Shown here in pieces: positions 5,184 through 44,459 of a stretch of DNA of 64,000 nucleotides. The first letter of the stretch is position 1; every line of letters begins with the position of its first letter. The translations under genes and the position numbers were made by a program. Source of the DNA: an uncultured Clostridia bacterium (GTDB lineage: Bacteria; Bacillota; Clostridia; Christensenellales; UBA1242); contig CALWJZ010000001.1 of the NCBI GenBank assembly GCA_944381145.1, positions 65,125 through 129,124 of the forward strand. The letters run 5' to 3'. The notes below the pieces were generated by a model. It saw only the letters and a program-made list of their open reading frames with translations, was not told the origin of the DNA and made no database searches.

Positions 5184-8100
5184 ATGTCAAAACGTGTCAA
5201 ACCAAATTTTAGAGTAAAACATCCTTATTCTTATTTAATCAAATCTATCTTGCTTGGAATAGTAATGCTGTTTACAGGTATTTTTTCTGTGTCTATAGCA
5301 GGATTTATGAAACCAGATTCCTTGCCTGAAGATGTTGATGCTATGCAATATGATGCGATGAAGATAACTACTCACTATGAAGTAGATGATAATGTTGAAG
5401 GCATAATTAATCCAGATAATGGAATACCATATTCTTCTTATCCTGTTTTTATTGATTATGTTGGATCGGAAATATATGATGACCATGTTTCTAGCCGCCC
5501 TCCAGATAGTTCTTCATATATAAACGCTGATGTAGAGATTATTCTTCCAGATTATAGTTTTAGATATGAAGAAAAAATTCATATAGTTACGTTATATTCG
5601 GCTCTTAATAGGCCCATAATACAGTCTGTACAAAACGGAAATATTACTTGGGGAACTTCAACTGATTTTGGCTATAATGTATATTATGTTACAGAATCAG
5701 GAGAATATGTTAAATATAATCTTGACTATGAACAAAATGGTCCAAGTTATTCTACTATGTTTACCATTAGCAATGAGGATCTTTATAATAATGGTTATGT
5801 TGGTATAGTTATTAGTACAAAAGGTCTATTATTTGGTACAAGTGGAGATACTTTTATAGCGATTGATGAAGTAGCATCTTCGCAAGAGACAAAAAAAATA
5901 ATAAATGTTGAGGTTGGAAGATTGGAAACAGAAACACCTGAACCACCACCTACATTCGGACCAGCCAATTTGGGATCATATTCCGGTAATGGTACATCTG
6001 GACTTACTGGAAGAACTGTTGAGGGTGACGGAACACCAAATAAACCTTTTAAAATTTATTCATGGAATGATTTTAGATTTTTGCAATATTATTACAAAGA
6101 CGAAAGTAAATGTTACTCATTGCAGTCAGATGTTACAATTAATACAAACTCATTTAATTACTATACTTATAGTCATGGCAACTGGACGGTAAAAGGAGCA
6201 CTAAGTTATAGCTCTACACCTATTGATTTTGATGGAATCTTTTATGGTAATGGTTTCGATATTAATATTACAACCAATTCAGTTAGATACTCGTTATTCG
6301 AAAGTGTTTCATTTTATTCTATATTGAAAGATTTCAATATTATTGTATCTGCTACATATTCTACTTCTACATATTTCTATTATTCACTGCTTGTAGATGA
6401 AATTAGGGGAGGAACTTTCGAAAATATAAATATAGATTTAGGCAATAATTTTTATATTACTGCTAATTCTAGTTCAACTACACTTTCATCTAGTAGTCCA
6501 GATACAAATATTAGAGATTCTCGATCCGGTGGTATTTTTGCAAGAGCGATATCTGATGTAAATGTCTCTCGTAGTAATGTAAAAATTGTGAATTGTAATA
6601 TTATTGGAGATATAAACTTATTAACGTATGGTGGATATTCTTTTGGTACTTTTGTGGGTTATATAGACACGCATAAGGGAGTTTATATCTCGCATTCAAC
6701 ATATACTGGTACAATATTTATAAATAGAAGAACATCAAGCAATTATCAATCTTCTACAATAAAAGGAAAATATTTTTATTCTGCTACATCTGCATGTGTA
6801 GGTACAGTTCGTTCATCAACTACCCATGTTACTTTTACGCATGTAAATATTAATGCATCATTTTATTTCAAAGCTATTTCTAATTCAACAACTTATCAAT
6901 ACAAAACATATGCAAGAATTACTATTGCTGGTTTTGTAGGTGGTTGGACTGACTACTTTGATCCTAATAGTGCTAGTAGTAAGATTTCATATTCTTATTG
7001 TATGTATAACAAAGATCCAGGACAATCATATGCAGTAGGTGTTGCAAGCGGTTATACAGCTTCAACGATATTAGGTACTACTAAGACATACAAGAGACTT
7101 TATATATATCACACAACGCCATCAACTTCTTATCATACGTATAATACTGCAACGTCAAGTTTCACAAGTTATTATTTATCATATATTTATGGAACTAGCT
7201 TAACAACTTCTACAACTCAATCAACATTTAATAATACTTTCAATAGTTCAAGTAATGGAAATTCTAATGGTTGGTATTATGGAACTGATAAAAAGATATA
7301 TAAAAGGTCAATAAATGTACTAAATTTTTCTACTAAAAGTGGAAATTATACTACTGTAACTCCTGTAAATAATGTTTATAATATTAGTAACGCTAAACAA
7401 TTGAATTATATTAGTTATTTATGTAATAATAATGGTACTAGTTTTTCTGGTAAGACTATAAAATTAACAGCTGATATAGATATGCAAGGATATAATTGGG
7501 TTCCACTTTTTTGCCTTAGTAAGGCTACATTTGATGGTAATGGCTATACAATCAAAAATTTATATATCGATACACCTAGTGTTGTTGGAAAAATGTATGA
7601 TGGATGGTCTGCCTATCGAAATTACATTGGTTTTGCTGGATATTTTAGCAATTCTACTATTAAAAACCTTACATTTGAAAATAGTTTTATGTATATAAGT
7701 GATATTCCTAATTCCTTTGAATATGGATCAAGTGGTATTGGGTCAATAAGAAGTATTGGAATGATTGTAGGACGTTTGAATTCATCAAATTGCTATAATG
7801 TATATACAAAAAATTCTGGTATGTTTTTGTCAATGTATAATGGTTATAATTCTATATCATCAACTGGTGTTCCTACATCAAATTCACTTTATAATTATAT
7901 CTCACCTTGTATAGGTTATTCGCTTCAAAATTCCGATATTAGTGGAATTGTAGTAGATAATTTTCGATTAGGAAAAGATGATGCATTTGTATCTTCAACC
8001 ACATTGAGTACATATGGATTTTATGTATTTGGTGGATTAACAGGCTATGCTTCTTATACTGATTCAAAAGAAGTTGTTATATCTGATATTTCAAATATTA

Positions 8101-11100
8101 GTGGATTAGATTCTGTATATGATTTAGCGAATGGTTCTGCAATACAGAAATATATTACTGATGTAATTATTAATAATGTAAATGTTTCTAACAAAACATC
8201 AACAAATACTTCAAGAAGAATCTACAATACATATTATGAAATGTCTACTAACGGATATCAATTTGCAAATAGAACATCTACACTTAGCACTTTTTTGAGT
8301 ACAATTTTGAAAGGTGACTATGCTGATGTTTGGGGTGTATATACAAATCAAACATCATCTAGTATTCAAAATTTAATGGAAAATGCTGTAACAATCAAAT
8401 TACAGTCAAATCCTTCATGTGCACATACGAGTACTAAACCTGTTTCTGTTTCAGGTACTTGTCCTATATGTGGTTCAAGTGGAACAACTACTGAAAATAG
8501 ATGTAATTTGTGTAACGACGTAGTATCTTATAGCTATAATTATCCTTGTGGATATGATGGTAATACTTGTAATGCAAATAGTCTTTGTCCTGTTTGTAAT
8601 GTGGGTACTATGGAGCCATCTGGTACAACAGATACAGATGTGCAATATTGGGATTTATATTGTTATGGTTGTAATACACGAGTAGAAGAAGCCATTGAAT
8701 ATGCTTGTACTAATTCAAGTTGTAGTAATAGTTATTTGTCTTATGATTGTAATTGTGATAGTTCATATGCATGGAGACTAGGGAAAAGCGATACTTGGAC
8801 TATACGTAACAAAGATACAAATGAAATAGTTGGTTATTATTATCATGAATCTGGTTGTACACAAAAAAATCCATCAATTCATACAGAAGCTTATGGTGTT
8901 GAATGTCCAAATTGTGGTCAAAATGAATACGCTCCTGGTTTTACATATTGTGTTGGTTGCTATGAAGCAACAGGTGGATTGTCAATAGTTTGTGATAGTG
9001 GTTGGTGTTATAGTTGCAGAACTGGTTCTATTGAAACCTTTACAGATTATTCTTGGTATATTTATGAAGATTCTCCTATCATGTCTGTATCATCTCATAG
9101 TGGATATACTTCTCAATTATTAAGTAATAATTCTGCTTGTTGTTGCGCAAGTTGTGATACTTCATATACTGCAAATTATTCTGGCAATAATCAATTACGT
9201 GCCGTTACTGGAAGTAATCCAAGAGTCAATACAATATATTTGGTTTTGTACAAATGTGAACCAAATGCTGTTTTCTTTGATACAAAGAACAATATAGATT
9301 CTGGCCAAACTGAATTATATGATAATGGTATTTTGTCAAAAAGTACGTATAGAATACCATCAACAATTAGTTCTACTTATGGTACTAGTAATTTTATTCC
9401 AAGTAATAATAATTATCAAGAAATGTATAATACTGGATCTTTTGCTTGTTTCCCTGGAGAATCTCTTTATTTAGTAAATAATACTGGTAGTACTAGTTTA
9501 AGTCATACTATCAAGAGTAATTCATCTTCAACTACAAATCTTCTAGAACTGGAAGAATCTGATTATGCAAACTTGTCGACAAGTACTGATCCAAATGTTT
9601 ATAATCTGAAAGCATATAAATATACAGTACCATCTACATACAGTGGCAACTTTAGAAGTTCTAATGGTAACATGTTAATTGAAGTCAATGAAGGACTTAA
9701 AGAAGCATATTTTGTAGTAACTTTTGACGCTTATTCTATAAATGAAATGGACATTGTGCCAACTATTTCAAAAACTGGTAATGGAACTTTGACTAAAGTT
9801 GGAACGTATAATTTAGGAAATAATACTTATGATGGATCGCATATTTCATGGTTATATAAGATTTCTGGAATGGACAAAAACACTCAAATTACTATAACAT
9901 TTGGAAGACCAATTACAAATAGTACTTATTATATAACTCCAGGTTCGTATTCTAGTTTGAATTATGTCAGATCATATGAAAAAATTTATTATCGTGATTC
10001 TAATGAAGGTACCAAGTCAGAATTAACTCCTACATTAAGTGGAAATTCTAAAACTTTTACATTTAAACCATATCAAAATTCTAATTACACATATTGCAGT
10101 AATTTTTCTTCTGATACCAATTTATCCAGTATTGCTGAACAGGTTCCAGAAATAATAATGTCTTATACAGATTACAATAGTTCAACTGACAAATGGTTGA
10201 CAAGGGTTACAATAAATACTTCTAGTTATTACGCTTATTCTAGTAATTATACAGCTGAATCAACTATAACACCTAAGTTTAGATATTATTATAATTCGTC
10301 AACATATAGTTCTGCTACAAGTGATTTGTTTTGCTATTTAGGTAATAATGGTACTTCTTCTACATATTTCAAAATTCTTCAAAGTGATAATTACAAAGTC
10401 GGTAATTATATTTATCAAGCAAAATTAAGATATAGTACTTCAAGTGGAACAACAATATACTCAAGTACAACAGCATCTTCAAATAGTAATATTAATACAA
10501 CTAAAAATGATTTAACATTGGATTGTAGTGAATATACTTCTTCTACTGGTGGCTCTAATAGAACTAATCGAAGATATATTTCTATCAACAATATAAGTGG
10601 AGTTGATAATAAATACGAGAGAGTATTATATAATTTTAATATTACAAAACCATCTAATACAAGTGCAAAAGTATATTTTAATGGTACACAAGTAACAGGG
10701 ACTACTGCTACAGGATATTATAAATATAATACCATTTCAATTGATTTTCCTGGTACAGATGAAAGAATAAAAAATTCTTATTTTGCCGAAGTAAATTATA
10801 CCTATTCAACAACTTCTCAATCTACAACATCTTCTACTAATTATTATCTTGCATATGATAATTCTGGTTTAATTAATCAAGCAACAGGAAGTTCAAAAGG
10901 GTCAGCTCCTACTAGTAATGATTTTAGTATGAGATGGAACAATATCCCGATTATTCATAGTAACAAAGGTATTTATTCATCTGCTAATGAAAGTTGGACA
11001 CCAACTATAAAAGTAAATTTATATCGTTTTACTTGGGATCAAATTGCAAGGGCAACTAAAGATAAATACGATGATACCAATGGCGCAGCTAATATAGCAA

Positions 11101-14100
11101 ATGCTCTTGAATGGGGTAGGTTTTTGATAACACAAAGTTCTAGTAGTGTTTCTACATATGTATTAACCAATGATATAGATTTTTCACCTACAAATGCCTC
11201 TTTTACATCTGGAGGAACTACTTATCACTATGATAACGAATATATAATGAATCCAAGCAAATCTTATACTTTTTCTAAAGTCTTGGATGGTCAAAATCAT
11301 AAATTTATAAATATAGTCGCTTTGTATGGAAATACACTTGAATTCGGCAATGCATTAGATTCTTCATATAATGGTCAGTCAAGTATTTTGTTTAATACAT
11401 ATAATTCAAATACTATATCAGATTTGTATATTTATAATCCAACAATTTATTATAATCTAGAAGCGTCTGAATCAGTTGGTATGATATTTGGTAGAATTTC
11501 GACCGGAGCAAACATTCATAATTTTGGAATATATACTGATTCTAATCATCCAATTATTGTACGTGGTGGATCTAAATTCAGTTTTATAACTTTGTATCAT
11601 TCAGGAAATTCTACTTTATATAATATAAGTATGGATATTTGTGCTGATTTTGGTGTAAATGAAAATTCCACAAAAAATTTAGTTGTAAGCGCAATTGATA
11701 CTATAAACAATGGCCCATGTTATTTAAAAAATTCATACTTCATTATGAATTCTATAAATTCTGGGAAAGTTCAAAATATAAGTAGTACTTACAAATCTAC
11801 ATATTCAACAATTAACATCAATCAAAGCAATAATAAAATTGAAAATGTGTATGTTGTAAGTACTAATTCAAATAATAATGTAACTAGTTATAAAAAGACT
11901 ATCAATACTAATAGTGGTACAGTATCAAATTTATATTATTTATCAAATTCTGCAGATGGTGGATTTGGAATAAATTTAACAGAAACTCAGTTTCAAACTC
12001 AAAATAGTTTTGTAGGCTTTCCGTTTGGATCGGTTTGGGTATTTGATAAATCTTCAACTAATCTAAATAGTTATGTTGATAGTTATAACCAATTTAATAG
12101 GGGTTATCCTTTGCTTGTTACAAGTGGTATGACTTTGGCAACTATTGAAAATTTTGAATTTTATTTAAATGGTCAAAAAGTAACTGCAACTACTCCTACT
12201 GGAAACAAAGTCTATATCAGTGAAGATACTAATTCTAATACTATAACCATGATGTACAATGGTGACACAAATAGTTCTGGTGATGAACCAACTTGGACTT
12301 TACCAAATACTATTGCTTCTATTAGTAGGCAATCTATCTCTATTACTTTAGATAAGTATATAAACTCTAGAGTATACTTACAGAGAGTCGATTATTATAA
12401 TGGTTCTACAACACAAACAATACTTGCAGGTCAGTATGGATCGTTTGGTTCTTCTTCATCGCAGTCTACACAATCATTTACTCCTAGGGTAAATAGTAAT
12501 AATACTATAAGAGTATATTTTACTACTCCAACTATCAATTTTAGGACAAATAGTGCTTTGAATATTTCAAATGCTTTTACAACAAATTTAACATCTAGTG
12601 TATTTTATACTGGATATAGTAATTATTACTTTTTGACTGATCCTTTAGAATTTAATATTACTGAAAATCGTGAAGCTATCAAAATAAGCAAAATTAAATT
12701 CAATACTACAACTCTTCAACCTTTTAGTACGACGAGTGGAAACTATATTACTAAATCATCATCAAATTATACATTTAATTCTGACAAAAGCGTATCTATT
12801 AGTAATTTTACTTCTAATCTAAATATAGAAATTACAGAAGTTTATGTTAAAGTTTTAACTAGTTCTGATTCCACAAACATACCTATAACTATTCATACGC
12901 CTGGTAATAGTAATGTTTATAACCATTCTAATAATTTATACTATTTGCCATATACATCAAACAATTATAGTTATGAGATAAAAGTTACTGATCGTGATAA
13001 TACAAATAAAATTGGAAGTTTAAAAATCTGTAATACAACATACTATTCTAGCACAACTAGTTATGGCAGTAATGTTTTGCAAGATGGTACTAATACACAA
13101 AATTCTTATTTAACGATAAAATATGATACTACTAATTCAAAAAATAGTATGTATTTTAATAATCAGTTAGCAAGCAATACTATACCTCAAAAAAATCTTT
13201 TAAAATTTGCATATGATAATTCTGGATTGTCTAATGGTTCTGTTTTGATATCTCAAAGCAAAATTCAATCTACATATAATATCGTAGTTAGATTAGGAAC
13301 AATAGGGAATGCCCCAGATATTTATAATGACATCAAACTTAGTTATAATAATACTTATAGTTCATTCAATTCATCAACAAATTCGACATATAATACTTCA
13401 TATCAAGCAACAGCAACAAATTTGCCAATTAATACAAATATTTCTTTAAATTTAGGTTTCTATAATGGCTCATCTGTTACTAAATTATCAAAAGCAAGTG
13501 TTGACAATAATAATTATGCTCCTTATTTAATTGATGGTAAATATTATAGAATGTATTGGACAACTGGTGTAAGAAATAGTTCTTCTTCCTATATTACAAA
13601 TTCTTATACATATACTCAAAGTACTACTAATACTCACTATGTCAATGTATATCTTGTTGAAATGTTGACAACAAAATTTCTTTTGTATGATGCTGGAATT
13701 TATAATGCTCCTATGTATTCATCTTTGTATTCTGTACATGGTGCTAGAGCGAGTCATACAATAAATATTGGATACAATACCAGTGCAAGTAGTAGCGGTA
13801 GCAATACAATTAATCAACTAAGTAGTTTACAAAACAATAATTATGTATACTATACTGATTACAATGCTAATGCTTCATATCAATTAACATTCGATAATTC
13901 TTTTGAAGTAGGCTCTCAAACCTATAATTTAAGCGAATTATTTCAAATATCTTATGTCAAATTTAATAATGTAACTCAAAGTTTAAGCAATAATAGTGTT
14001 TCAAAAAATATAACTTCAAACTCAACTTTCTCTCCTTATATTCAACTGAAAACAACTCAAGTAGGAGTTTACATTGTTAATCCAGCATTACAATTCAGTA

Positions 14101-17100
14101 ATAGTGATGCAAATTATTTATCCAACTTAATTCCTTGGATTAGTTTCTATACTTGTAGTAGTGGTGATTCTACACATAATAGAGTTAATCTTTCTACGTA
14201 CCCTAATGCTCAATCAGGATCTCAGTTCCAAAGATTAGCTACATGGAGTGGTTCATCGCTTAATGCTAATGCAAACATATATGTGACTGGTACATCTAAT
14301 AAAGTTGCAACAATTTCAATAAAACCAACAGGAACTGAAAACAATGCTTTTGCGAATTTAACTGATAACTATGTTTATGTTGTAACTACTATTTATGGTA
14401 ATTATTTCGAAATTACTCGTGGAGATAAAGATACTACTACAAATGAAAGTTATGATAAAAATATTTTGGTTAGTTTAACATCTACAAATTTAGGAATTAA
14501 AACTCAAACTAAAGGTACAATTGATGGAAGAAATCAGATTATTAGTATTCATGGACATACTCTTGTGAAAGAAACAAGTGAAGATAATAATTATTCTACC
14601 ATTGCATTTACATATGCTCCTTTTGTAACTCTTAACTTTAGTTCTGAAACTATAAATCATTCAGTTCAAGCTTCGAATAGTATAAAAACTGCTGTAAGTA
14701 ATATTAGCGTAAGTGCTGTAATGGATAATAATCCAAATGTTGTTATAAATCCATTTAAATCAAATAATCCAGAATGGACTTATGACTTGACTGCAACTCA
14801 AACTTCACCAGAAGTTAATCTTGTAGTTACAGCACGCTTAACAATTAAAAATGGCTATTTTTACAATGGAATTAAAATTAATAATATAGAATTTGGTCCA
14901 GATGTTGAAACTCCAGGAACACAAGGTATAACAATTAGTTTGAATGGTAATACATTAACAATTGTAGTTACTTTGAATAAACAACAATATAATCAAACTG
15001 ATAATAATGTATTATCAAACATTAATCCAATTTTCGAAGAAATCAAAACGTATGGACCAGGTAGTGATGCAACAAAAGGAACATCTAATATTGAATTGGT
15101 TGGTAGAGGTACTTTAAAAATATTTGATTATTATGGAAGCAACAAAAATCAATTATTAATCACTTCTAATACTTCTGGCTCAAATATGCCAATTCAAAAT
15201 TCAACTTTAAATGTTTATTATTATTCACAATTAGAAATAGTATTAACTAGTGCTACAAATTTTGTTTGGCAATATTACAAAGTGAATTCATTTGAAAAAA
15301 GAAACACTTCATATGCTAATGGGCAAGTAACAATTAATAGTTCAACTTCTGGCATATCATCAAATAACTTAGGTACTGTTTCTAATGCATCTCAATTTAC
15401 AATTTATGTTGAATATGTTTCCAAAATAAAAGTTGTATCATCGATTCAAAATGATGCAAATTACTTATCAAATCATGATATTTCTAATAATGGAATAGAG
15501 TCTCTTGTATCATCAATTGAAGCAACTGATAATAACATAACTAGCAAATCAGTTACATTTACTCTTACTCCTGATGAAAATTTCAAGGTTATGTTTTATG
15601 AGATAATAGTATTCAAGACAACAAATCCTACTTCATTAAATAAATCTACAAATTATGTTTCATATCAATTAATTAGTTCTGGCTCTAAAGAACATAGTAT
15701 TTCTTATACTAATATGCAAGTTAGTAATTCTGATTTTGATTCAAATTTCAAAACTACTCTAAATACTGACAAAACTGAATTAACTATTGATTTTGTTTAT
15801 ACTAGAGATGGAAAATCATATTCTGAAAGTAATTTCTTTGGTGCTACTGCGTATATTGAAGTTATTCCTTATATGATAGAAACTCCAAAAATTATTACTC
15901 TAAATAATACAACAAATTCTGCTGGAGTAAAATTCGCTGTTGATACAACTCAAGTTAGATATGTTAGAGGATCTTTCACAGGCAATATTTCAAGTCCAAA
16001 TATAGAATTGTTTTATCGTAGTACAGGGAAAACTACTGCAACAGGAACAACTGCAAATGGCTATACTACATTCGATTTTGGAAAAGTAGAAGCTTCAACA
16101 AAAATGGTAGTTTACAATGATACGGTAAATCACTATGATACTATTGAAATAAGCACAAACGGGACTGATTGGTATACTGTCTATGACAAATTCGTAGATG
16201 GTGAATCAACAAGTACATTAACTCTTGATTTTGTTGCTGATAATCATTTATCTTTTACAAACTTGAGCAATAATTATTACTTAGATAACTTAGTTGCTAG
16301 TAGTACAACTAATATAATATCGGGAATGAATGCTTACATACCTGTTGTAGCAAACAAAACATATAGTATTTATTCGTTTATGGAAAATTATGGCTTCAAA
16401 GTTCATGTTTATGATAATAATTTTCAACAAATTTCTGTAAGTGCTGAAATTTCAGCAGGTAATGGTATAGATTATAATGTTGGTTCAACTGGTGCTTATA
16501 TAGGACTTACATTTATTAGATCATCATCAGCATCATCATCTAGTGCAAATCTACAAGAATTGAAAAATAATTTCAATATTGGCTTCCAAATTTATACTTC
16601 TGGATCTGCAGACATAGATTTTTATAGTCCAACTGAAATATATGTAGGAAGCGATAGCAATATTAAATTAGAAAGTGCAGATGGAGTAGGTGTTCGATTA
16701 GTTACAAAAACTGATTCTTATGTAAATGAAATATCAACTTCGGCTTCTAATGGTACTGATTATTTAAGAAATGATATTTCTGAAATAAATGGTGCAACTA
16801 ATGCTTTTTATGTAGGATCTAGAAAATATTATCAATTTAATCCTAAATATGATATTGATATCAATGTTGTATCAAGTAATGCAACACTTAATGCCGATAT
16901 TATTAATAGCATTGTTTCAGACATTTCACATTCTAGTTTATTGAATTCAAACAACGGTAAATATTTCTCAAAAAGCAATAGTTTAAATCCTACTGCAAAT
17001 GATTTTGAATTTAATTATAGTAATATTAATCTTCCAATAGGCTATGAATTTGTTAGTCTTTCACTTGTGGGTCAAAATGACAATACATATGTAAGTTCAT

Positions 17101-20100
17101 ATTATACAGAGTCAACTTCTCTTTCTGGATATTTTGATCACGAGGAAAAAGACAATAGTGAAACATTTACAGTTAAACTTACAATAAAAGAAGTTGAATA
17201 CGAATATACATTTGGTCATAATTGTAATAATTCGAGTTGTCCTGAATGCTTACAAGGACATTTGAATGTATATACAAGTCTTGCAAATTCAAATTCTTCT
17301 AGTGTAGTTTCAACTACTGGACAACCTAAAATAAATGTTGCACAATTGATTGTAAAAGCAAGTTCTAATGCTACAGTTTCTGATAATAGTACAATTGCCC
17401 CAACATCTATAAGTTCAAACATTCCTAAAGCTGTCTATAATGGTGGATCAATGTATAGTAATATTGATCAAATAAAAAAGACAACAATTACTTTAGGATA
17501 CTTTAGTTATACATATGTTGAAGCTATTAGTAGTAATCCAAATGAAATATTCATAGGAAAATGGGACATTATAGATTCTACAGAAAATGGAAATAATAAT
17601 GTTTCAACTTATGCATATTATAATTGGCAAGGTAATAGCGATACAAAAACATTTGGTATGGCAAATGGCGAATATGTTGAGCATTATATTGATAGAAATT
17701 TAGATAAATTATCTTTTGATAGCAATTATACTGTAAATATTAGACATCAATTTTTCTCAACATACAAAATATATTTGAAAGCGTTTATTAATAATTATAT
17801 TAATTCTACATCACTAGTTGAAAATGCTTCAGTAATTGAACATAGTAATACTATTTCTGCTTCAAATACAGAAATTTATAATATCAAAGATGTTAACGAT
17901 AATATTATAGGTAATATTAACGTTGTAATTTCTGGAGATTACACAAAAGGTACAGAATCAAATATTCCATATATTAGATTAATTGCGGGAAATAATGTCA
18001 CTATAACATATACAGATACAAGCGAATATCATGCGATTAATCAAGGAAAAGTTACAGGTTCTAATTTGCATTATGGATCTGGTAGTACTGTTGTTGACGA
18101 AATAATATTAAGTGAGGATAATACTACTATCCAATTCAACAATAGGTCAGGTACTTCAGGTTATGACAATAATGAAATAAATTCAAACAATTGGCTTGAA
18201 GGATATAATCCTACTTCAAATGGTACAATTACCTATACACTTTCTAATACTGGCAGTACAACATCTTATTCTAGTAGCAATCTTACGTTTGAAACATATT
18301 TTGATACTTATCATAAAATATATTTTGATAGAATAAATGCAACTCCTTCAGATGGAATTCTTGCAACAGGTGAGATATCTATTACAGAAAATGAAGATTC
18401 TGCAAATTCTTCCAATTCTGATAATTCCTCAGGTACAACTTTGGGACAAAATTACATAATATTATACGTAAAAGAAGGTAATTCGTTTAAACTTTCTGCT
18501 GAAGATGGAAGTAATAGCTCTGACGGATTGTATGCAAAAGATAAAGTTTATTCTATATCTCAGTTAATAAATGGTTCTTTTGTTATAAATGGAATTTACG
18601 AAATTGATTCTAGTAAATTCAAATCAGATTCTTATAATACTTATTATCAAACTATTATTCAACCTACAACATACAATACTGAAGGTTTATATTCTACAGA
18701 GAGTATCGATGTTGTATCTTCATTAAGTCAAGATTTGTATTATACAGCATTTTATGCTTCTGCTATGCAAATGCAAATAGAATATGATTTGTTAAGTGAT
18801 AATATTAATGAAAATTTTGTAGTAAAATTTGATAATTCAACTAATGAAATATTGTTAGGTACAGATGGAAATTATGGAAAAGTTTCTGTTTGGTCAAATT
18901 TTGATTGCACAGTTTCTGCTCCTCTTCATACTGATGGTTATATAATTGTAGGATCGAATGGAAACTTTGTTTCTACTCCTAATTTATATTTCAAATATGA
19001 TGGAAGTGGAGAAAATGTTTATAATAGTACATATGCTTTTTCAAAAATGCAATATTATACTGGAACTAATATTTCTGGTAACTGCGAATTTGTAGATTTG
19101 GTATCAACTGAAACATCTGCTAATTCAAAGATTTATCTATCCGATAGTGTATCTTATGATACAAAATTTAAAGATAATGTAAATTCTAATCATACAAATC
19201 ATAGTGCTATTAAAATACTTTTGAGTAAACAATATGACGTAAATATTATTTATAGAATTAGAACAAGTGTTGATGATAATTATGCAAATATTAATATTCG
19301 TAATAATGCTTATGTTTATTTAGGTACAAATACATTACCTACAGCAAGTAATTATTCAAACTCATTTAATAATTATAACAATGATGAAAATTCTTATTCA
19401 TATTTTACTAGAAGGTTCACATACAATACTGATATTTTGCTTAGTGCATATGTTCCAACAAATAATGTTTACCTTCCAGATACTGGTGGAATTACAGGTA
19501 ATTTCCGTATTGTACGAATTTCTAGAGAATTACAATTTGATTTAGGTGAAACAATAAATCATGATGGTTTTGCTAATGCTACATTAAACTTTACAGTAAC
19601 ATCAGATACTGCAGGAATATATTATATTGATATAGTTCAAGTATTGAAATTGGATACTTATGCTCCTGAAAGAGAATATATTTCTTTAACTGGTTATAAC
19701 AATAGAGGAAGTCATATTGGAGCAACTATAGAATTTGAAAATGCAGATGGCAAACAAATATATGATGGCTTTACCATTTATTCACACAATGATTCTACCT
19801 CTACATTGACAGGTAAATATGTAGATAAATATGATACTGTTACAATAAAACCAATTTTCGAAGAAGGTTTCGAGGCAAATATAGTTGAAAATTCTCAGTT
19901 TGGATTCCAAAATATTGAAAATTTATCATCTAATGGTGATGGTAGTTATAACTTTGTTGCAATTATTAATCATGTTAATAGTGAATCATCTAGCAATGCT
20001 ATAAAGTTATTTACAATTGAGAAAAAAGTTTATTATGATATGTACTATGGTATTTGTGACAAAGATGGAAATTTATATACAAGTAGTTCGTTACCTGAAG

Positions 20101-23100
20101 GAATAACTTTATCTAGTCTTTTTGCACAAGGCGCAAAAACTATTGTCACAAATGACAATATAATAAGTAATAGTAATCCTACTACCTACATAACAGGATA
20201 CATATTAAGCGACACTCCAGTAGAGGGTTACAATAATATTACAACTGTAAATAGATATATAGGATATTTTGGAAATATTGAATTTACTGTGGAAACAAAT
20301 GTAGTAACTGGAGGTTATCAGTTTAGAAAATTTGTTATTGATGGTCAAAATGAATTATATGATCCAGCAATTACACATAACATTACAGGATTTAATCATA
20401 ATGGTTTAACTAACAAGGGAGCTAATAACTATACTGGTGTTATAGAGTTAGTAGATAATACTGCAGTTGTTAATACAGATACCATCGCACTTTCAGCATA
20501 TTTTGTATATACATATGCAATTACAATTGATGTTAGATCTTCTGATGCACAAGATATTGATTTGGGTGGAAGTGATTTCAATACATTATTTGGTACTAAT
20601 GAATTTTTAAAAAATGGTTTAATTTACAACAAACAATATATTGTAGAATACGGAGATAGTATAACTCAATCAATAAGTGCTTTGATTAAACCAAGATTTA
20701 GTTCAAATGGAAATTATATTAAAGGTTATATGTATTATACATTAGCCAAAAATTCAAATTCAAATATTACAACCAATAGATCGGGAGATACTCTCAATAT
20801 AACAATTGGGAATGTTATAAGTTCAGAAAGTATTAGTATAATTTATCATCCAATACTTTGCATTTCACTAAATCCAGTAATTTCTGGAAAAGGTACAATA
20901 ACAACTGAATTTTCTAATACATCATTTGATGTAAATTCCTACACAAATTGGAATAATAATAATTCTAATATTGGAGTGTCCTATACTTCAACTTCTAGAA
21001 TGTATTCTAATGGCAATACAAAATCAACTCAAAATATAGAACCGGTTCAAACACCTGCAATTTTCGAAAAAACTTATCAAGATTCAACTACTACATATGT
21101 TTATGTTGTTTATGGGGGATCTGGAGCAAGTGGTTTGAAATATACTACAACAGCAACACCTTATATAGAAAATGCAGACAATATTGAATCATCAGAAAGA
21201 TATATTCCTCATGAATTATATTCAAATGGTATAACAAAACATTATCAGATAGAAGTTAGTACTGGAGTATTTGTTGATTACGAAGAACTTGCTGACGGTG
21301 TAAATAATAATACTTTGGTGGATTCTTCACTTAGAGAAAATTATTATTCAAATAATTTACTTGAAATAACTGACGAAAATAATCAAAATATTTTGCCAGT
21401 TGTAAATAGTTTTGAGATAGGTGGCAGTTTTGTTAGAGAATATACAATTGAAATTAATACTCATTTATCTGATTATAATACACACCCATCATCAAATATT
21501 TATATTGTTGTAAATGGTGTTGAATATTTAATAGAAACATCTAACGAAGAAGGTGATTACTATTATAAGAATGTTCATGCTTTGAATGATTTAAATGATT
21601 CGTCTTCGAACGAAAATGAAATAACAAATATTATTGTTGAATGGGACGATGATAAATATGAATTTATTTATGACCAAGTAGATTTAATAAATAATAATTC
21701 AACTGTAAGTTCATATCAAACTTTAGGTGCAAGCAATACAATAAGAAATAGTGATGAAAACATTGTTGCTTATGCAAACGCTTTGCCAATAGGTACAGAA
21801 TTATTCAACGACAAATATTCACGAACATTTAATTTTGTTGAAAAAAGAAATGTAACATTAACAGTAAACCCTGAATATTTAAATGCTGATTTACAACCTA
21901 ATATAAAAATAGAACAATTAATTTCAGATCCAAATGGTGTAAATGTAGAAGGTGGTTCAAATAAATTTAAACCAGATTCTTTGACAGATGGAAATTATGT
22001 TGGAACAAATATATCAGTGGATAATATTGAAACACATAATAATTCTATAAGTGCAACTGTTCAGGCATCAAACTATGAGATTACTCTATATGCTGAAGAT
22101 ATATCTCAGGCTTCTTCATATAAATTCAATGGATTTATAATAAATGGTGTATTAAATGACAATGTAACAGTTGATGGTATTTATTATAAATTAAATGTTG
22201 CCATACCATCTGATAATTTGGGTACCACTTATAACATTGTTGCTGATTATACACTTGATACAACTAACAAAGATATTATAAATATAAAAGGTAATGGATA
22301 TTTTGAATTTGGATATTCAACGGCTAATACTGCAAGTGAAGCTGTACAAAACTACACAAAGTTTAATGACACAAAGTATGCCGATGTTATTAATGAAATT
22401 ACCAAAGACGTTGTTGCTCTTGAAAATAATAATGTAAATTATCTAGTAATCAAGGCATATCCAGATAATTATTCAAAATTAGACAGTGTTTCTGCTATGT
22501 ATCCAGATGCTACTGATTTGGATTTCTCATTAGGTTTTGATACTGATAATGCTACTTTTGTGGATTATTTGTATGATCAAAATAATAATTTGTTTGTTTA
22601 TTCTGTAAAAGATTATGGTCCAAGTTATGATTATATGCAGGTAAATACTGAAATTACGCTTGTATTTACTAGTGACACTTGGAGAGAACATACTGAAGAA
22701 ATAACTACATCTACAATTACAAAAAATTCAATCTCTAAAACTGGATACCATGTAACCACACCACAGCAATTAGCATATCTTGCAAGCAATAGTACAATAC
22801 TTGAAAGTTCTAATACTATAATTTACATTGACGCTAATCTAGATTTAAGTAGTTATTTATGGTTGCCAATTGAAAATTTTGCAGGACAGATAATTTCTGA
22901 AAAATACTCTATTACAGGTATAAATGTTGTAGGTCAACAAAATATTGTTTTGGAAAGCAACATACCAGGCACAGTTGTATTTACTAATGTATATACAACA
23001 AACAAAGGTTATTCTTCCAATCCTACCAAACAATATTATGTATATACACAAGATAGTTCTATGGGATTATTTGGCAGTACAAACGGGGCTACCATAGAAG

Positions 23101-26100
23101 GCCTAAATATAGGTAACTTTAATGGAACATATTATAATTCAAAAAATGTTTATAATGGCAGTATTATAGGAAATGCAACAAATACTACAATTTTAGATGT
23201 AAATCTAACAAGTAATATAAATTATACTTCAATATCTTCTACTGTTACATCTTCAAATTATTATTATTCATTATTTGTAGGTGCTACAAATGGATATAAT
23301 GTTATTAAAAATTGCATAAGTACTGCAAACTACTCATCAAGTGTTTCTGGTGCTAATATAAATGTGTCATTTATTATAGGTAATAGTAATTGCAGTAGTG
23401 CTGTTATTAGTACAGATAATGGAATGCAAACAGGAGATTATATTTCGAATGTAAGTTTAACAAGCAATTCTAGTAACATACGTAATGCAAAAAATTTAGC
23501 GGGTATAATAAGTAACCAAACAGCAATTTCAAACATTTACGCAGATAATATATACATAAATTTAAGTGGTGATAATTCTGCTTCTACTAATGTAATTTGT
23601 AATAATATAAATAATTCAAATATTTTCAAATATGATACAATTTATTCTAATAATTTCTATAGTTCGAGTGAGTCAGGTGATTTATTCAGTATAGATAGAG
23701 TAAGTAATTATGACAATAATCGTTGGAATAATTCTAATCAAAATAATAGAAATCTTAGAATATCATCTACACTTTATGAGTCTTCTCTAAATGTAAATGC
23801 CCATGTAAGTGGTACAGAATCTAATCCAACAATTATTCCAATATCAAGCAAAGATCAACTTATAAGTAACTTAAATGCAATAAACAGTGATTTGAGTTAT
23901 GTTGAATTAAGACTTACAAATAATATTGATTTTGGTGGCGATGTTTGGAAAACTATAGATCTACCAAATGGTTATACATTTAATGGTGCTGGATATACAA
24001 TTTCAAATATAGTACTAAATGAATACAACAATTTGATTGATTCAAAATCATTATTTGGAATAAACAATGGCATCATAAAAAATTTATATTTGCAAGATAT
24101 TTACATGTTAGTAGGTGCGATGGCAACTTATAATCCATCAAATTATGCTATAATTGCAAATGAAAATAATGGAGAAATATTCAGTATAAGTGTTAGAGGA
24201 ACTATTGATGTAAATATCAATAACTCTGAAAATAATGTAGTTTATATTGGTGGGTTGATTGGTACAAATAATTCTAATGATTTATATGAAATAGAATTAA
24301 TTGGAGAAATTAATGTTGGATCATTTAGTTTGAACACCACTTCACTAAAATTTGTTGGTGGGCTTGTAGGTTACATGAATAATGGTAGTTTAAATAAAGC
24401 ACATTCAAGTGTAGTAATTAATACTTATGGAAATAGTAATGTAATAAATACTGCATCAAAATTTGGTGGATTAGTAGGTAAACATACTTCATTAATTATT
24501 AAAGATAGTTATTTTGGCAATTATGAGAATAGTGAATATTTAGCTGGTATAAATGAATATGAAAAAACAAATAATTCAATGGCTTATGTAATAAGTGGTG
24601 AAGGAACAAACCTTGATGTCCAGAGTTTTTATTCAAGTGCAAACTTTTATATAAAATCTGCAAATGGATTAAGCAGTGGTAACATTAATAGTAACTATGC
24701 TTATATGTTAAATACAACATATTCATCTCTTCCAAGCAACATTACATCAATTACAGATGAAAATCTAAAAAATCAAAATAGCCTAGTGGGATTTGATTTT
24801 GAAAATATTTGGTATTATGATAGTTCAGATTACTTGTATCCAAAATTAATCGGTAACAAAAATACTCATGATTTAAAAGTTACTCTGACTGTTGAGGGTA
24901 TTGATCATGTTGATAGTGAAAATATAATTAATGTTGGAACAATAACTAATAGCAAAAATTATGAACAGATTATATATGGTACAAAATACGAAAATAATCA
25001 CACTAATAATTCTATTGATTATTACGTACAAGCACTTCATGATGACACTATTTCTTCAGGATATACTATAGACATAAATGCAAATGAAAATTATCATATA
25101 GTTGCAGTTATTCTTGATGGTATTACTATTCGAAGTTCTAACTTCCGAAATGTTCCAGTGACGAGCTATGAAGATTTAGATTTGTTTGAAATAATTAATT
25201 CTGGAGCATTTAGTAATATAGAAAAAACATATGCAAATACTAATGAACATACTTTGCGAATTGTATTTAGCAAAAATTTCTATTACTATGGTACAGGAAT
25301 TAATGGATCAACAAGCAATTCTTCAATAAATGAATTTGGACAAATAACTTATACCAATGAATATGGACAGACAGTTGTTACAAGTACATCTGTTAATGAT
25401 AAAAACAATAGATTAAGCGATAATACAAATTATTATAACAATCGAACTTCTGATACTAATACTTGGACATTAAGTTCTTCAACTCAAAACTTTTATTATA
25501 AAAACACATCAGGACAAAGTGCTCCAAATAGTGCAAATAGTACTGTTACATTTACATTTAATGCAAAAAGCGTTGTAGGTGATATCAATTCATATATAGG
25601 TGTTAGACTTATAGGTTGGGTTTATATTCCTTATGGTAGTTTGATGACTTTCGACCAAGCAAAGACGTCCTCAATAATTAAATATAATGATAATGGAACA
25701 GTAATATCTATTGAAGCTAATGGAGAAGCAAGCTCAGTTATCCAGTATATTGATGCTTTATCTAATACAAACTTAACATCAATTACACTAAATAATGGAA
25801 AAACTACAACTAGATATATTAGCTCTTCAAGTATTACTATTACTTCTGATGCATTAAGTGAAGGATACTATTATCCATATGTTGAATATGTTTATACATC
25901 ATCAGTTGTAAATACATTGCATTATCATACTCATAATGAAAATTGCTATAATGATGATGGCGAATTAACATGTAATGATGATCTTACACATTCTTTTGAT
26001 TATGGTGGTTCTTGTACTGAATGTATTAATGGATATATTTCCATAAATGGTTTTGTATATCATGTTATTAACAATAAAGTGACTTATAATGATACAGATT

Positions 26101-29100
26101 ATCTAGTTTCTAATAATCAAGTCAATATAGATGGAACAATATATAATGTTTATAATAATATTCAAATATCATATGGAAGTGACTTTAATACGAAAGAGAA
26201 GACTATTACTCCAGGAGACTTTGTAAGTGATGGTAAGAGCATTATAATTGAAATTGACGAAGAAAGAGAAGGTAGCAGAATAGGAGTAATTGCTAGAAGA
26301 TTCTATGATGAAAATACAAATTCAATTAATATTCATTATTATGTAGTTGAAAATAATTTAATTGTAGATGCTTATTATATTAGCGAAGGCAATAAGATTT
26401 CATTTAATAATGAATTTATAAATGATTTAAATGGATTATATTTCCTTGTTAATTCAGAAGTTGAGAACAATGAATATGTTATTAATTTATATTTTGAATT
26501 AAATGAAAAAACTGCTGGCGAGTACGCATTCTACATGGTAGAAAAACTGTATGATGTAACATTAGATATCACTGATGTTTATAAAACTAGTGAAACTAGC
26601 ATAGTATTATTCAGAAATAGTGATTATACGCTATCTTCTACAGTAGTTTCAATTAAAAATAATAATGGAATTATTCAATACATGCTTGGTAATTCAGGAA
26701 CATATGTAAATTTGGATGAAACAGGAGTTTCAAACAAAGTTAATGTATTAGGTTTATCTTTGAAAGTTGATATTAGCATTAATAATGAACTTGTGCATAT
26801 CGTTAGTCAAATGCCAAATAATTACTATCCACGAATCGTTTCTACACCTATCGAAAAATATAGATTAACAGATGAAAGTGATAGCATCAAAGTTACAAAT
26901 ATTTTAGTTGGCGATGATTTAGACAATAAAGATTATAGTGGGGTAAAATATACTACTTATCAAGATATATCTACTGATGGAATTAGAACCAAAGGATATT
27001 TGTCATACGATTTAAATTTCAATACAACAACATACAAATCAAGTATGACTTATTATTATGACTATGGAATTCTAGGTCCTAATGACGAGAAAATGGTTAT
27101 TACACTAAATATGAAGAAAGATAATTATTCATATTTTGATCAATTAAATGTAACTACTAAAATTCCATCATACTATAGTAAGTATTTAAGTGGGTCAAGT
27201 TCTGAATCAATGTATTATAATAATTCAAAACCATTGAATTATACCGATTCTGAACTATTGACATTATTATCTAATTTCCAATTTGCGACAACAGATAGTA
27301 ATATAACTTCTGGAGAAGATGGTTTAACAAGGTCTACTGCATTTACAATTAATAATCCTTATAAACTAGCATGGTTATCACATATTTTAAATAATGATAT
27401 TAATGCAACTTATCAAGTAAATGGAATTGATTATTACTTCAAAAATGCATATTATAAAATTTCAAGTAATTTAGATATGTCTAATAAGTTTTGGTTACCA
27501 ATACCTGAATTTTCTGGAGTAATGTTTAGCAATAATACTGCTACAGATATTGGGTCAATCAATAACTTATTTATAGAATTATTATCAGAAAATGTTGAAG
27601 ACAATGTTTCATTTAATGTAGAGAACAAATCAGATTCTAATTATGTTGGATTTATATCAAAAGGTGTAAATGCTCAATTTATCGGGCTAAACTTTGAAAA
27701 TGCATATGTAAATACAGATATTTCGGTTTACACCGGTATATTAAATGGACTTTCTAACAATTGCTATTTTGATAGAATTAATATTGCTAATACTGAAATT
27801 ACTCAAATAGATACATCGAATACAACAGACAATTTGATTTCTCTTGGTGCAATATCAGGAAAAGCTAATTATATGTTTGTTGTTAATCAATCTGAAATTG
27901 TTCATGTTAAATTTAATGCAAATCACAACAATGTAAGTGCTACAATTGGTTTTAGTGATTACTTTGGAGAAATTTATAATACATATTCTTATGTAGAGCG
28001 TGGTAATGAATTGATAATATCTAATCCAACACTTAGATTTATAAATTCATTAAATGCAATTATAAAAAATTGTGTACATCATGTTTATAGTGGTGTAAAT
28101 GACAATGATAAATTATTCAATAATAATGATATATCTACTTACAAAGATATGAATTACATTATAGTAGACAATTCAGCAACTACTCAAGATTCTACAGCAA
28201 TTTCAAAGAATTCTGTAATAGAATCTAATTTGAGTAATTTGGATTTTGATAGAATATGGCAAATTAATGATTCAAATACAGAAAATATAGGATATGTAAG
28301 CCTAAAGAAATCAGTATTTGATATGCGAACATCTTCTATTTCACTTGCAACAGAAAGTGCTACTGATGTTGGCTCAAAATACAATCCATATTTAATTCAA
28401 TCTGTTGATGATTTTATATTGTTTGTAAATAACATGAATTCAAATAGTAACAATAACATTAGTAGTTATTATAAATTGACAACAGATATAAATTTAACTG
28501 GAAAGTATATTTATCCTATTGAAATATTTAATGCAAATCTTGATGGTGATAATCATATAATTTCAAATTTTTATATTTATTCTGATCAAGGTATTGAATT
28601 AAATGGAACTACTCACTATGATACATCTTTGATTCTTACAAACAATGGAAATCTTAGTAATTTGTTTATCAAAGATTTCTATATTGTAGGTTCTAACGCA
28701 GTTAATGAGTCAACTACTGCAGGATTTGTTGCAAGAAACAATGGAATTATAGAAAATATTTCATTTGTAGGAGATATTATTTCTAATGCAACATATACAT
28801 CTGGTGTTTTAGGATATAATTTAAGCACTAACGAATCTATGTTTGGAACAATAAATACAGTAATATCTGATGGTATTATTTTAGGTACATACTATACAGC
28901 AGGGGTTGTTGGATTTAGTGATACTTACTCTAAAAATGATATTTTAGCAAATTATTCTACAATTTTAGGCTATAAGAATTCAGCAGGTGTAATTGCTAAT
29001 GCTCAAACTACTGGTGTAATTAGTAATATGTACAATGTTGGAAAACTAATGTTTGGAGATGATGGTTCAGGTACACAAAGTTTATCTGGAGTAATAAATT

Positions 29101-32100
29101 CAAATTCAAATAATTCACTTTTAGTTTCAAATATTTATAATAGTGGAATAATTGAAGTTAAAAAAGATAATTCTGGATCAAATACATATGTAGCACCATT
29201 AATTGTGAATATGGGAACTGGCTCTGTCACTCTTAATAATGCAGTTTATTTAATTCCAGCAATAACTAGTACAGGGGATATTGATTATACTGTTGACTCA
29301 GGTATTATTGCTAACTCAAGTACAATAAATTCAGTTTCAGGTAAAAATAATTCAGAAATCATAAATATATCAAATACATTCTCTACAGATTTATGGAATT
29401 TTGTTCAAATATGGAGTGTATATTCTGATGTAAATAATGGACTTCCAGTGTTTAAACATTTCAATGATTACATTGTTAAGTTGCCTTTTGATAGTAATTA
29501 TCAATATATAAGTTCAGATAATTTACCAGATAAATACTTTACATATCAAAAACCAGAGATTTCAAAATATGTTGTTATAAGGGATACTATTTCTGGAGAA
29601 GATTATGTTATAGATATAGACACTTCGGGATTAATCATCACTGAAAATGGAATTTCAAATAATTTCATAACAATTAACGATGTTTATATCAATGATGATG
29701 GTACTATTTATATATATAAAGGTGCAACTGTAACACTTAGAGTTACTTCTGTGATTTATAGACATATAACTTCTATATCATTAAATCACAAAAATTCTGA
29801 AATAACATCGATTACAGAGAATTATACTAGAACTTCAGATGTTCATAATTCTGACGGTCAAAAATTAGGAGTTAAATTTGATATGTCTCCTAATGCAAAT
29901 ATTTTTGATATTTATGATCGTAATAGATTTGATTATTTCATTACAATAACAGAAGCTATTGATACATATGACATCTCTGCTGAAACTTCTGAAGTTACAA
30001 ATGATTCTGCTGTTAGCTTAATTGAAAACATAAGAATTTCAGAAAGTTTGGATAATAATGAAATAAGTGGAGAAAATCCAACGCTTACAAATATTCAACA
30101 TGGAAGCATTGTAAAAATAGAGTTAACATTAAATCAAAATATATTGAGTGCAGAAAATACAAATATAAGAATAGATAATTGGTTACTTGAAGTAGATAAT
30201 ACTCTTGATGATGGAAGTGGTTATAATTATTTAACTGAAGATAAAACAATAGTTAATAGTATTGCAAGTAGTCCAGATAATTATAGTTTAAATCAAAATT
30301 ATAATGTTGCTAATTATGAATCTTATAATACTGATGGTTCAAAAACAACTTATGAATATGATGTAGAAAATGGTAAATTTAATATTCAATTTGTTGCTAC
30401 TGCTGAGACAAGTGGAAATTATATAATTTCTCTTGTAAAACAATGGTTAGTTCAAATCAAATTTAGTATTAATATTGATATAGGTACAGATTATCCTATT
30501 GTATTTGTTAATGGACATGAAGTTAATTCTACTTTAGAAAATAATTCTGCTTACATATTTAATCAAAATATTTTGAGCAATGGTATGACACAGAGTTATA
30601 ATACTGAGTACTATAATTACAATGGATTAAATGCTGTTCCTACTACAAGTACACTTGATACAGGAATTTATTCATTGCTTTCTACACTTGAACAAGATTT
30701 TGAGTATAACATAGGAGAAAATCTAAAAACATTAGACTATGTTAATAATTCATTTATTGTTAAAATCTTTGTAGATAATGGTGCAAGTATAAACTTTAAT
30801 ACTTATTCCAAAGAAGTTTATACATTTACAGGCTTTACTACAAGTAATAGTCCAGTTCCTACTGAAAATGTATCAATGAATACAATAGATGTAGGTGGTG
30901 AAATTTTGGATTTACACACTTTCAGAGTTGATAATTTACAAAATTCTTATCATGGAACAAATATGGTTGTTGCAAACTATATTCCAAGTAAACATTATGT
31001 AAATACAATTGTTGATAATGGAAAAGATATAGATAGATTACAGCCTAATGGAACAGTTTCTGCTTATGCTGAAGTTCCAGCTGATCCTTATGAAACTATT
31101 ACTGGAACTAATATAACAAGTGAAGTGCGTCATGCTAGAAATTTGACAATAACTTTAACTCCAGATATTAGATATACTCTTGATAAATGTTGTGTAAGAT
31201 ATTATGTTTATAAAGATGTAGAAGATACAGATGGAAATATTACAAGAATGTATTATAATGAAGAATCTGATACTTGGACAGATGATAAATCAACAATAAA
31301 CGAAAATTATCTTCCAATGGTAAAACACTACGTATCTGGGTCACTAGCTGAAAATAGAACAACACTTGACATTGTAGAAAGTCCTTATGATGTATTGTCT
31401 AATGATATAGAAACGGGAGATATTAATTATAATTATGTTATTAATATAACTAATCTAGTTGGTAATATAGAAATTCATATTACTTACATTAGAGATTATT
31501 GGAATGATACTCCAACAAGTACAAGTTTAAGTGGTAGTGGAACATATAATGATCCTTATCAAATAACAAAAGCAAGTGATTGGGGGTACTTAGTTAATAC
31601 CTCAAATGCATCAAATAATTATTACAAAAATACTTATTTTGCTGTAATGAATGATATTGACTTTAATTCTAGATTTACACCTAGTCTTAATGAATTTAAT
31701 GGCTACATATACGGAAATGGATTTGTATTTAAAAATGTTTTACTTGATGGATATTTACAATTAGGTAATAATTTTAGACATGTAAGGGATATTTCGGATA
31801 CAGATACAAATTATGTACGAGGTATCGGAAATGATAGTTACTTCGGTTTAATAAATAATCTTCAAATTAATGGTAATATATCAGATATTACATTTGACAA
31901 TTTACAAATTTTAGGCAGTATAAGTAATTCATTAGATAGCGAATATTCTGCAATAATAGGATTAATTGCTAAAAACGAAGGTACTATTACAAATATTATT
32001 ATAAATAACAATTCAAAAATTGAAGTTTTATCTAACGATGAATTAAATTCTACAAGCAATAAGTTTGTATCAAATTTAGGTGCAATTTCAGGAACTAATA

Positions 32101-44377: not shown

Positions 44378-44390
44378 ATTCAAAATATTT

Positions 44391-44404
44391 AGAACATTTG
44401 TTTG
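44391..44404 (+). promoter_or_regulatory. LexA (Cheo/SOS) box at the lexA promoter
   Basis: AGAACATTTGTTTG fits the Gram-positive GAAC-N4-GTTY core and overlaps the -35 hexamer. Confidence 0.7.
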
Positions 44405-44430
44405 ACAAGGAATTATATATGTGATATATT
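44402..44430 (+). promoter_or_regulatory. Sigma-A-type promoter for lexA
   Basis: TTGACA (44402-44407), 17 nt, TATATT (44425-44430), preceded by TGa (an extended -10-like element). Confidence 0.6.
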
Positions 44431-44459
44431 AAGTAATATAAGTTTGATAGGAGTTAACT

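Follow-up and report, generated by a model that had tools for sequence, protein, structure and literature searches.

This locus raises the question of what a dense cluster of cysteine (Cys) residues is doing in a giant and otherwise nearly Cys-free protein. The protein is encoded in a stretch of 64,000 nucleotides, referred to throughout as the window, from an uncultured Clostridia bacterium (GenBank assembly GCA_944381145.1, contig CALWJZ010000001.1, positions 65,125 to 129,124), by a single open reading frame (ORF) lying between the genes for RNase H and an ABC transporter:

5184..35006, plus strand: giant ORF with the Cys cluster, 9940 residues.

The answer that we reach is an array of small modules. 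These are Cys/His knuckle mini-domains, a type known in general, but they form a new family, and both their location and their arrangement are unusual. A first-pass annotation of the window had drawn attention to a dense cluster of paired CxxC motifs in a Cys-poor protein, and the density it described holds up: of the 67 Cys in the protein, 27 fall within residues 1079-1324 (nucleotides 8418-9155), a Cys content of 11% compared with 0.41% in the other 9694 residues (hypergeometric p = 1.7e-26), and so do eight of the ten CxxC motifs. Every motif it had listed is found exactly as written in the translated ORF, namely CPICG-x10-CNLCN (C1093, C1096, C1107, C1110), CPVCN-x21-CYGCN (C1135, C1138, C1160, C1163), CPNCG-x11-CVGCY (C1241, C1244, C1256, C1259), CDSGWCYSC (C1270, C1275, C1278) and CCCASC (C1319-1324), together with the remaining Cys in CAH (1079), CGYDGNTC (1122/1129), CTNSSC (1175/1180), CNC (1189/1191) and CTQ (1225). 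The two CxxC motifs outside the main cluster are held by two small Cys/His clusters that resemble isolated metal knuckles, one at 17217-17261 (residues 4012-4026; H-N-C-NNSS-C-PE-C-LQG-H) and the other at 25920-26024 (residues 6913-6947; HYHTHNEN-C-x8-C-x5-H-x9-C-TE-C).

The bare CxxC pair, which the annotation had taken as the unit, is however not what repeats. The repeating element is a module of about 50-60 residues with the consensus C(a)-x-H, 11-17 residues, C(b)-P-x-C(c)-G, 10-12 residues, C(d)-x-x-C(e), 10-15 residues and C(f)-G-[YW], followed by an optional last Cys, C(g), which usually stands 1-6 residues ahead of the following C-x-H. The Cys of CAH and CGYDG, set aside earlier as single residues, occupy invariant positions of this module, as part of a pattern that includes the His. 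Judged by its sequence pattern, the window cluster is made up of three copies of the module, W1, W2 and W3, and not of loose CxxC pairs:

8418..8567, plus strand: module W1, residues 1079-1128, canonical, with C1079-A-H1081, C1093-P-I-C1096-G, C1107-N-L-C1110 and C1122-G-Y.
8568..8756, plus strand: module W2, residues 1129-1191, a remodelled copy.
8757..8855, plus strand: linker, residues 1192-1224, 33 residues with no Cys.
8856..9017, plus strand: module W3, residues 1225-1278, the terminal copy.
9018..9155, plus strand: tail of the terminal module, residues 1279-1324, ending in C1319-C-C-A-S-C1324.

W1 fits the full module definition, including a ...GDYAD[VI]WG[VI]Y flank upstream, and W2 and W3 fit it in part: they lack the His or have it displaced, their spacers differ, and C(f) is not followed by G-[YW]. 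In W2 the His is gone (C1129-N-A), the first spacer is down to five residues, the spacer between the CxxC motifs has 21 residues instead of 10, and there are extra Cys at 1175, 1180, 1189 and 1191. This loss of the His and first strand with a gain of 11 residues between the CxxC motifs looks like compensated remodelling, which might, speculatively, have been directed towards a classical ribbon. The ligand positions of W3 are C1225-T-Q, with Gln instead of His and a His at +8, then C1241-P-N-C1244-G, C1256-V-G-C1259 and C1270/C1275/C1278.

Related modules were found in three lineages. When 1.84 billion representative proteins were searched exhaustively by phmmer with residues 1042-1383, the only match was P0004 (E 2e-18), a 390-residue fragment encoded on a 1.4-kb ENA contig, which carries six and a half tandem copies of the module. 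The raw contigs of 185,579 species-representative genomes were scanned for DNA that fits a degenerate pattern of the module; one of the 17 matches was genuine, the other 16 being low-complexity DNA of the (TGY)n type. The genuine match, L016, lies on a 320-kb contig (CAKVID010000001.1) of a metagenome-assembled genome of an uncultured Clostridia bacterium from the Hadza gut, where a single open frame runs over 8 kb (2666 residues) and is collinear with residues 710-2521 of the window protein at 30-34% identity. Its array comprises eight modules, which contain 57 of the 74 Cys of the fragment. W1 corresponds to L016 module 1, W2 to module 2 (TNSSCSN is present in both), and W3 with its tail to module 8 with its tail (window ...SNNSACCCASCDT, L016 ...SNYTCNDCED, so that CCCASC, which ends the window array, is paired with the ...YTCNDCED that closes the L016 array); the linker takes the place of L016 modules 3-7. 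The third lineage, P0005, was found with a profile of the two giants (E 2e-57). It shares with the window the upstream RNase H gene and the flank preceding the array, after which it reads T-C-S-H-T, and at least four further modules are encoded downstream of a 1-nucleotide insertion on the ENA contigs of this lineage (L018 and L019). A different, very dense Cys cluster, SCGCTNGDCECPECSDSPSSCVCDADSHCDCW, is located near the N-terminus of P0005 (residues ~143-180; L018 ~1630-1740); the window protein has no Cys before residue 310 and nothing like this cluster there.

The position of the array is the same in these lineages, as is evident from the conserved sequences on either side of it:

8295..8342, plus strand: conserved flank before the array, LSTILKGDYADVWGVY, residues 1038-1053, also present in L016 and P0005.
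9246..9284, plus strand: conserved flank after the array, LYKCEPNAVFFDT, residues 1355-1367, with the L016 counterpart LYACEPSAVFVDT.

The L016 array is placed between ...LSTILKGDYADIWGIY and ...LYACEPSAVFVDT, exactly matching the position of the window array, and the number of modules between the conserved flanks at this orthologous site varies from three (window) to at least four (L018/L019) and eight (L016).

Conservation of the Cys in homologues, on which the annotation had made its proposal depend, is pronounced. The six Cys from C(a) to C(f) occur in every one of 14 modules compared across the three lineages, and the His in 12 of them, whereas identity to W1 at the remaining positions is 16-45% (alignment A2). 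P0004 and the L016 array are 89.5% identical, and none of the 41 substitutions between them affects any of the 44 Cys or the His of C-x-H (p = 0.0055 for the Cys alone). We hold the existence of the repeat family and its conservation, as read from these alignments, with high confidence. The family is real but rare: a word-indexed search for homologues gave no match with either the Cys region or the module profile, a scan of GTDB genomes with residues 700-1700 found no relative, and JGI metagenome contigs searched with the module alignment and the DNA pattern yielded low-complexity false positives only.

The module is also previously undescribed. No module reaches any Pfam gathering score, nothing significant was found for it in Pfam, NCBIfam, PDB sequences, PDB folds or BFVD folds, and literature searches returned no description of such a module, in agreement with the annotation's impression that the combination is unlike described adhesins. 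Its suggestion of zinc-ribbon families was not upheld by the profile search, as the best scores of that kind (DZR with E 0.0059, Zn_ribbon_4 and Zn_Ribbon_1 at ~0.01) are all under the gathering scores. The sub-threshold matches are mostly to zinc-knuckle domains (double zinc ribbons, the DnaJ Cys-rich domain, ribosomal and RNA-polymerase zinc ribbons, RING/B-box domains and anti-TRAP), which shows a resemblance of the module motif to metal knuckles generally and does not imply membership in any of these families.

That the cluster lies outside the cell had been assumed by the annotation, and is supported but not proven by features of the giant protein. One of these is a probable anchor at the N-terminus:

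5226..5315, plus strand: the sole hydrophobic segment of the ORF, residues 15-44, preceded by a Lys/Arg-rich N-terminus.

Neither a second membrane segment nor a C-terminal sortase motif was found in the 9940 residues, and we read residues 15-44 as a signal anchor or signal peptide, which would place the remaining protein outside the cell. Residues 1-44 (5184-5315) follow the pattern M-x-K-x-x-KPN-x-RVKHPYSYL, with the hydrophobic segment next. They are identical to P0005 at 31 of 44 positions, compared with ~35-39% identity over the rest of the two giants, and may constitute a dedicated export or anchoring signal.

The other feature is the region preceding the array, described by the annotation as the second of two cassettes, A and B, directly ahead of the cluster:

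7311..8363, plus strand: upstream conserved domain (the former cassette B), residues ~710-1060, 34% identical to L016.

This block is indeed a conserved domain; self-BLAST of the 9940-residue protein found no internal repeats at E<1e-3. With a profile built from the window and L016 sequences, more than 50 proteins were matched at E 1e-26 to 1e-6, the matches covering ~11-13% of the query and many of the proteins carrying PF05342 (Peptidase_M26_N), PF07581 (GLUG) or PF20585, and the start of the domain appears to be homologous to proteins with Peptidase_M26_N, GLUG, pectate-lyase-like adhesive, dockerin or SLH domains. The window protein itself scores no Pfam match, and searches of its whole length against Pfam and NCBIfam gave zero matches. 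The apparent homology of the upstream domain and the putative N-terminal anchor together support a surface location. It should be noted that a giant surface protein with neither a Pfam or NCBIfam match nor internal BLAST repeats is unusual. Residues 25-160 of L016, at the start of the upstream cassette (AKQLNY...TADIDM-GYNW...F-G-G-TI-NLY), weakly match residues 5855-5977, 6217-6345 and 7764-7900 of the window protein (E 4e-5 to 2e-4), which may accordingly contain several diverged cassettes of the upstream type.

For the fold of the module we relied on an AlphaFold2 model of W1 based on a 9-row alignment of repeats (mean predicted local distance difference test score, pLDDT, 87; predicted template modelling score 0.60). 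The model shows three antiparallel strands (module residues 7-15, 22-30 and 36-42) arranged as a β-meander, in which CPIC (16-19) occupies the β1/β2 turn and CNLC (30-33) the β2/β3 turn, at the two ends of a 9-residue strand with pLDDT above 90. The two CxxC motifs would thereby be roughly 30 Å apart, and since they are predicted at opposite ends of this strand they probably do not share a metal ion, unlike those of a classical zinc ribbon. The zinc-ribbon hallmark invoked by the annotation is thus retained as far as the two CxxC motifs in hairpin turns are concerned, but the model argues against their common ion. Ser, Thr and Asn make up almost the whole of the strands, one face of which is aromatic. 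Foldseek searches with the W1 model found no match at E<=0.001 in either PDB or BFVD (best E ~3 and ~0.4, respectively); the leading weak PDB fold matches are mostly Cys4-Zn domains (the cereblon CULT domain, yippee and the γ subunit of acetone carboxylase).

Our preferred reading, to which we give an even chance, is that of a tandem array of metal-stapled Cys/His mini-domains at a fixed site of an N-terminally anchored giant surface protein of a low-GC Clostridia-like bacterium. Strands composed of Ser, Thr and Asn provide no hydrophobic core and suggest that the fold needs metal staples; it would be held by two tetrahedral metal sites, most likely for Zn2+, one per end. C(a)-x-H is predicted just ahead of strand 1, and so near the second turn, and C(f) just past strand 3, and so near the first turn. 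Site A would then be formed by C(a)-x-H and C(d)-x-x-C(e), and site B by C(b)-P-x-C(c), C(f) and the optional C(g), a cross-braced order. With the chain entering at one end of the module and leaving at the other, head-to-tail stacking of modules could give a stiff rod of ~3 nm per module, as estimated from the predicted 9-residue strands. Such a rod might space the N-terminal adhesive β-helix-type domains from the remaining ~8600 residues, its length being set by the copy number. Our confidence is moderate for metal binding and lower for the topology of the metal sites and the role as a spacer.

Several observations weigh against this picture. W2 and W3 are degenerate and lack a His at the canonical place, and W1, L016 module 1 and L018 module 2 have no C(g), which leaves only three Cys for site B. 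The model of W3 with its tail is unreliable (AlphaFold2, pLDDT 40), and the assignment of ligands to sites derives solely from the secondary-structure string of one model made from the 9-row repeat alignment. The spacing C-P-x-C-G, x10, C-x-x-C is also what short double zinc ribbon units typically show, and there a single ion is bound by both CxxC motifs. The spacer role is read only from the copy-number variation and the predicted shape, three lineages are known in total, and in one of them the insertion mentioned above, inside the first module, splits the gene. This insertion is at L018 ~5437-5442 and at the same site in L019, with TGGT for the expected TGT in the codon of C(b), and in these two independent ENA assemblies results in a 1420-residue ORF and a continuing ORF in another frame; it may reflect a genuine pseudogene or variant, or else an assembly error common to both.

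A stronger form of the metal-stapled array, amounting to a structural principle new to bacterial surface stalks, would combine the cross-braced, two-metal β-meander rod with a stiffness and adhesive reach set by zinc availability and gut redox, so that the surface protein would act as a sensor of oxygen, oxidants or host zinc withholding. We offer this as a tentative extension that lies on the doubtful side of possible.

The alternatives differ in the order of the ligands, in the use of metal and in function. In a nested order, C(b)-x-x-C(c) and C(d)-x-x-C(e) would bind one Zn as a short zinc ribbon, leaving C(a)-x-H, C(f) and C(g) to make up a Cys3His site, either within the module or at the junction between modules. 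The spacing of C-P-x-C-G, x10-11, C-x-x-C, as is usual for double zinc ribbons, speaks for this, these families being the commonest weak Pfam matches, and so do the acceptance by W2 of an 11-residue insertion between the CxxC motifs, as expected of a hairpin tip, and the compact local cluster formed by C(g), x1-6 and C(a')-x-H. It is contradicted by the unbroken 9-residue strand of the W1 model with its separation of the CxxC motifs, and a purely junctional site is at odds with the first C-x-H of the array, which has no preceding module and yet is kept in all three lineages. We consider the nested order unlikely.

The annotation had proposed a tandem metal-binding array or a disulfide-knotted stalk. 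A tandem metal-binding array or stalk is still the best reading, with metal more probable than disulfides. Metal-free, disulfide-knotted mini-domains like the Cys-rich repeats of eukaryotic extracellular proteins, stabilising a stalk in an oxidising setting, would be consistent with the invariant Cys and with the predicted export of the protein, exported Cys-rich repeats being usually disulfide-bonded. Metal is nevertheless favoured, though not proven, by the conserved His of C-x-H, by C-P-x-C-G as a signature of metal knuckles, by the odd number of Cys (six or seven) in canonical modules, and by the sole relative with a named source, L016, being a gut anaerobe. As the gut is an anoxic, reducing habitat, extracellular thiolate-metal sites are plausible. 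The lack of a gene for a thiol-disulfide oxidoreductase among those found in the 64-kb window is weak evidence in the same direction, and we judge the disulfide-knotted stalk to be quite unlikely.

It is also conceivable that the array has a function of its own: storing or scavenging metal (Zn or Fe) at the surface, sensing redox state or metal, binding ligands as an adhesive unit, or joining neighbouring giants in a metal-bridged zipper. The eight-module homologue would provide up to 16 putative sites, the window protein has two more Cys/His mini-clusters and P0005 a different Cys cluster, and G5-E repeats of Gram-positive proteins are known to self-associate in a Zn-dependent manner. A freely varying copy number and degenerate copies in the window suit a spacer better than a tuned binding site, however, and with strands as long as predicted the two sites of a module would be ~30 Å apart, too far for electron transfer, which makes such functions very unlikely. 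Readings as an electron wire, a thioester or a radical-SAM crosslink were set aside, having failed on geometry, a missing motif or missing partner genes. Serine-protease inhibitor domains of the Kazal type, blocking host proteases at the surface, were suggested by a weak match of W1 to ovomucoid/Kazal_1 over P-x-C-G-S-x-G-...-C-N-x-C-N-x-V-V (PDB E 0.0015), where the local C-G-S-x-G-x5-6-C-x-x-C-N-x-V-V and the spacing C3-x10-C4-x2-C5 are alike, but we give this identity next to no credence and reject it: the Pfam match is sub-threshold (18.0-18.6 bits, gathering score 21) and confined to one of ten modules, it covers three of the six Kazal Cys (C3-C5) and leaves the invariant C(b) without a counterpart, it fades tenfold with an improved profile (E 0.0011 to 0.011), the W1 model has a β-strand where Kazal domains have an α-helix, and no Kazal structure is among the 50 matches listed in either Foldseek search.

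The surroundings of the giant ORF are those of an ordinary chromosome. The window has a G+C content of ~27% and the gene content of a cell-walled bacterium of the Bacillota type, with the following housekeeping genes:

Window, housekeeping genes: a NifS/IscS fragment, ThiI, RNase Y, tRNA-Trp(CCA), RNase H, ABC transporter, PadR, MiaA, MutL, MutS, MiaB, PBP1A and FtsK.

These neighbours give no functional hint for the giant ORF. At 43337-45086, next to miaA, mutL and mutS, are a gene of the phage-integrase family and one for a LexA-like protein (S24 peptidase), and the lowest G+C content of the window (20-22%) is found at ~38-44 kb; this may mark a small integrated element.

The exact 9940-residue sequence is absent from a collection of 15 billion proteins in which PBP1A of the same window is present, and residues 1042-1383 have no relative at >=50% identity represented there. 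The module family was nearly invisible to searches of protein catalogues, with one fragment among the 1.84 billion representatives, and was recovered through the scan of raw contigs. Since the giant ORF is absent from the catalogue and the family was recovered only via raw contigs, other features borne only by such giant ORFs may be under-sampled as well. If the metal-stapled array holds, it would represent a new domain family and an unusual extracellular use of Cys/His metal knuckles that are normally cytoplasmic, it would link the way a giant surface protein behaves mechanically to the zinc supply and redox conditions of the gut, and it would provide a very small (~50 residues), stackable and rigid block for protein design.

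Compared with known systems, the module is close in motif to zinc ribbons and rubredoxin-type knuckles (DZR, the Zn_ribbon families, ribosomal L37Ae/eL43 and Rpb9), with which it shares two CxxC motifs, the first as C-P-x-C-G, and, in the W1 model, their location in β-hairpin turns of a small three-strand antiparallel sheet. It differs from them in the two additional invariant ligand positions, C-x-H and C-G-[YW], and in the predicted placement of the CxxC motifs at opposite ends, where no common ion is expected; zinc ribbons are typically cytoplasmic, whereas the module forms a tandem array in a giant that is probably exported. The DnaJ Cys-rich domain (four CxxCxGxG motifs and an extended hairpin whose two ends each carry a Zn) and anti-TRAP have a comparable elongated β structure with Zn at either end, as proposed for the module. 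Its C-x-x-C-G-x-x-G is similar to CxxCxGxG, with weak matches to 1exk, 2ctt, 2bx9 and PF00684, the latter scoring 15.0-15.5 bits against a threshold of 32.7 and with at most one partial CxxCxGxG motif per module. In DnaJ, however, the ligand order is nested (1+4, 2+3), that of the module being putatively interleaved, with a His as one ligand, and the DnaJ domain is part of a cytoplasmic chaperone and not a tandem repeat. Cross-brace domains (RING, B-box, PHD) resemble the putative arrangement of the module in their eight Cys/His ligands, two ions and interleaved pairs (1+3 and 2+4), but the ligands of the module are C,H / C,C / C,C / C,(C) and not C3HC4, and its predicted long meander with sites ~30 Å apart contrasts with the compact RING with sites ~14 Å apart. 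RING-type domains are moreover eukaryotic and cytoplasmic, and the RING/TRIM matches are weak, with zf-C3HC4_3 non-significant at E 0.12-0.27. The likeness to the stalk repeats of Gram-positive giant adhesins (Ig-like, that is immunoglobulin-like, G5-E, SHIRT and isopeptide-stabilised repeats) lies in the proposed role, that of tandem small β-domains of variable copy number projecting adhesive domains, and there is no relationship in sequence or fold. Those repeats use a hydrophobic core, isopeptide bonds or an elongated single-layer sheet; the module would use Cys/His metal sites, and if our inference holds, metal knuckles would here substitute for the Ig-like or isopeptide-stabilised repeats that are usual in adhesin stalks.

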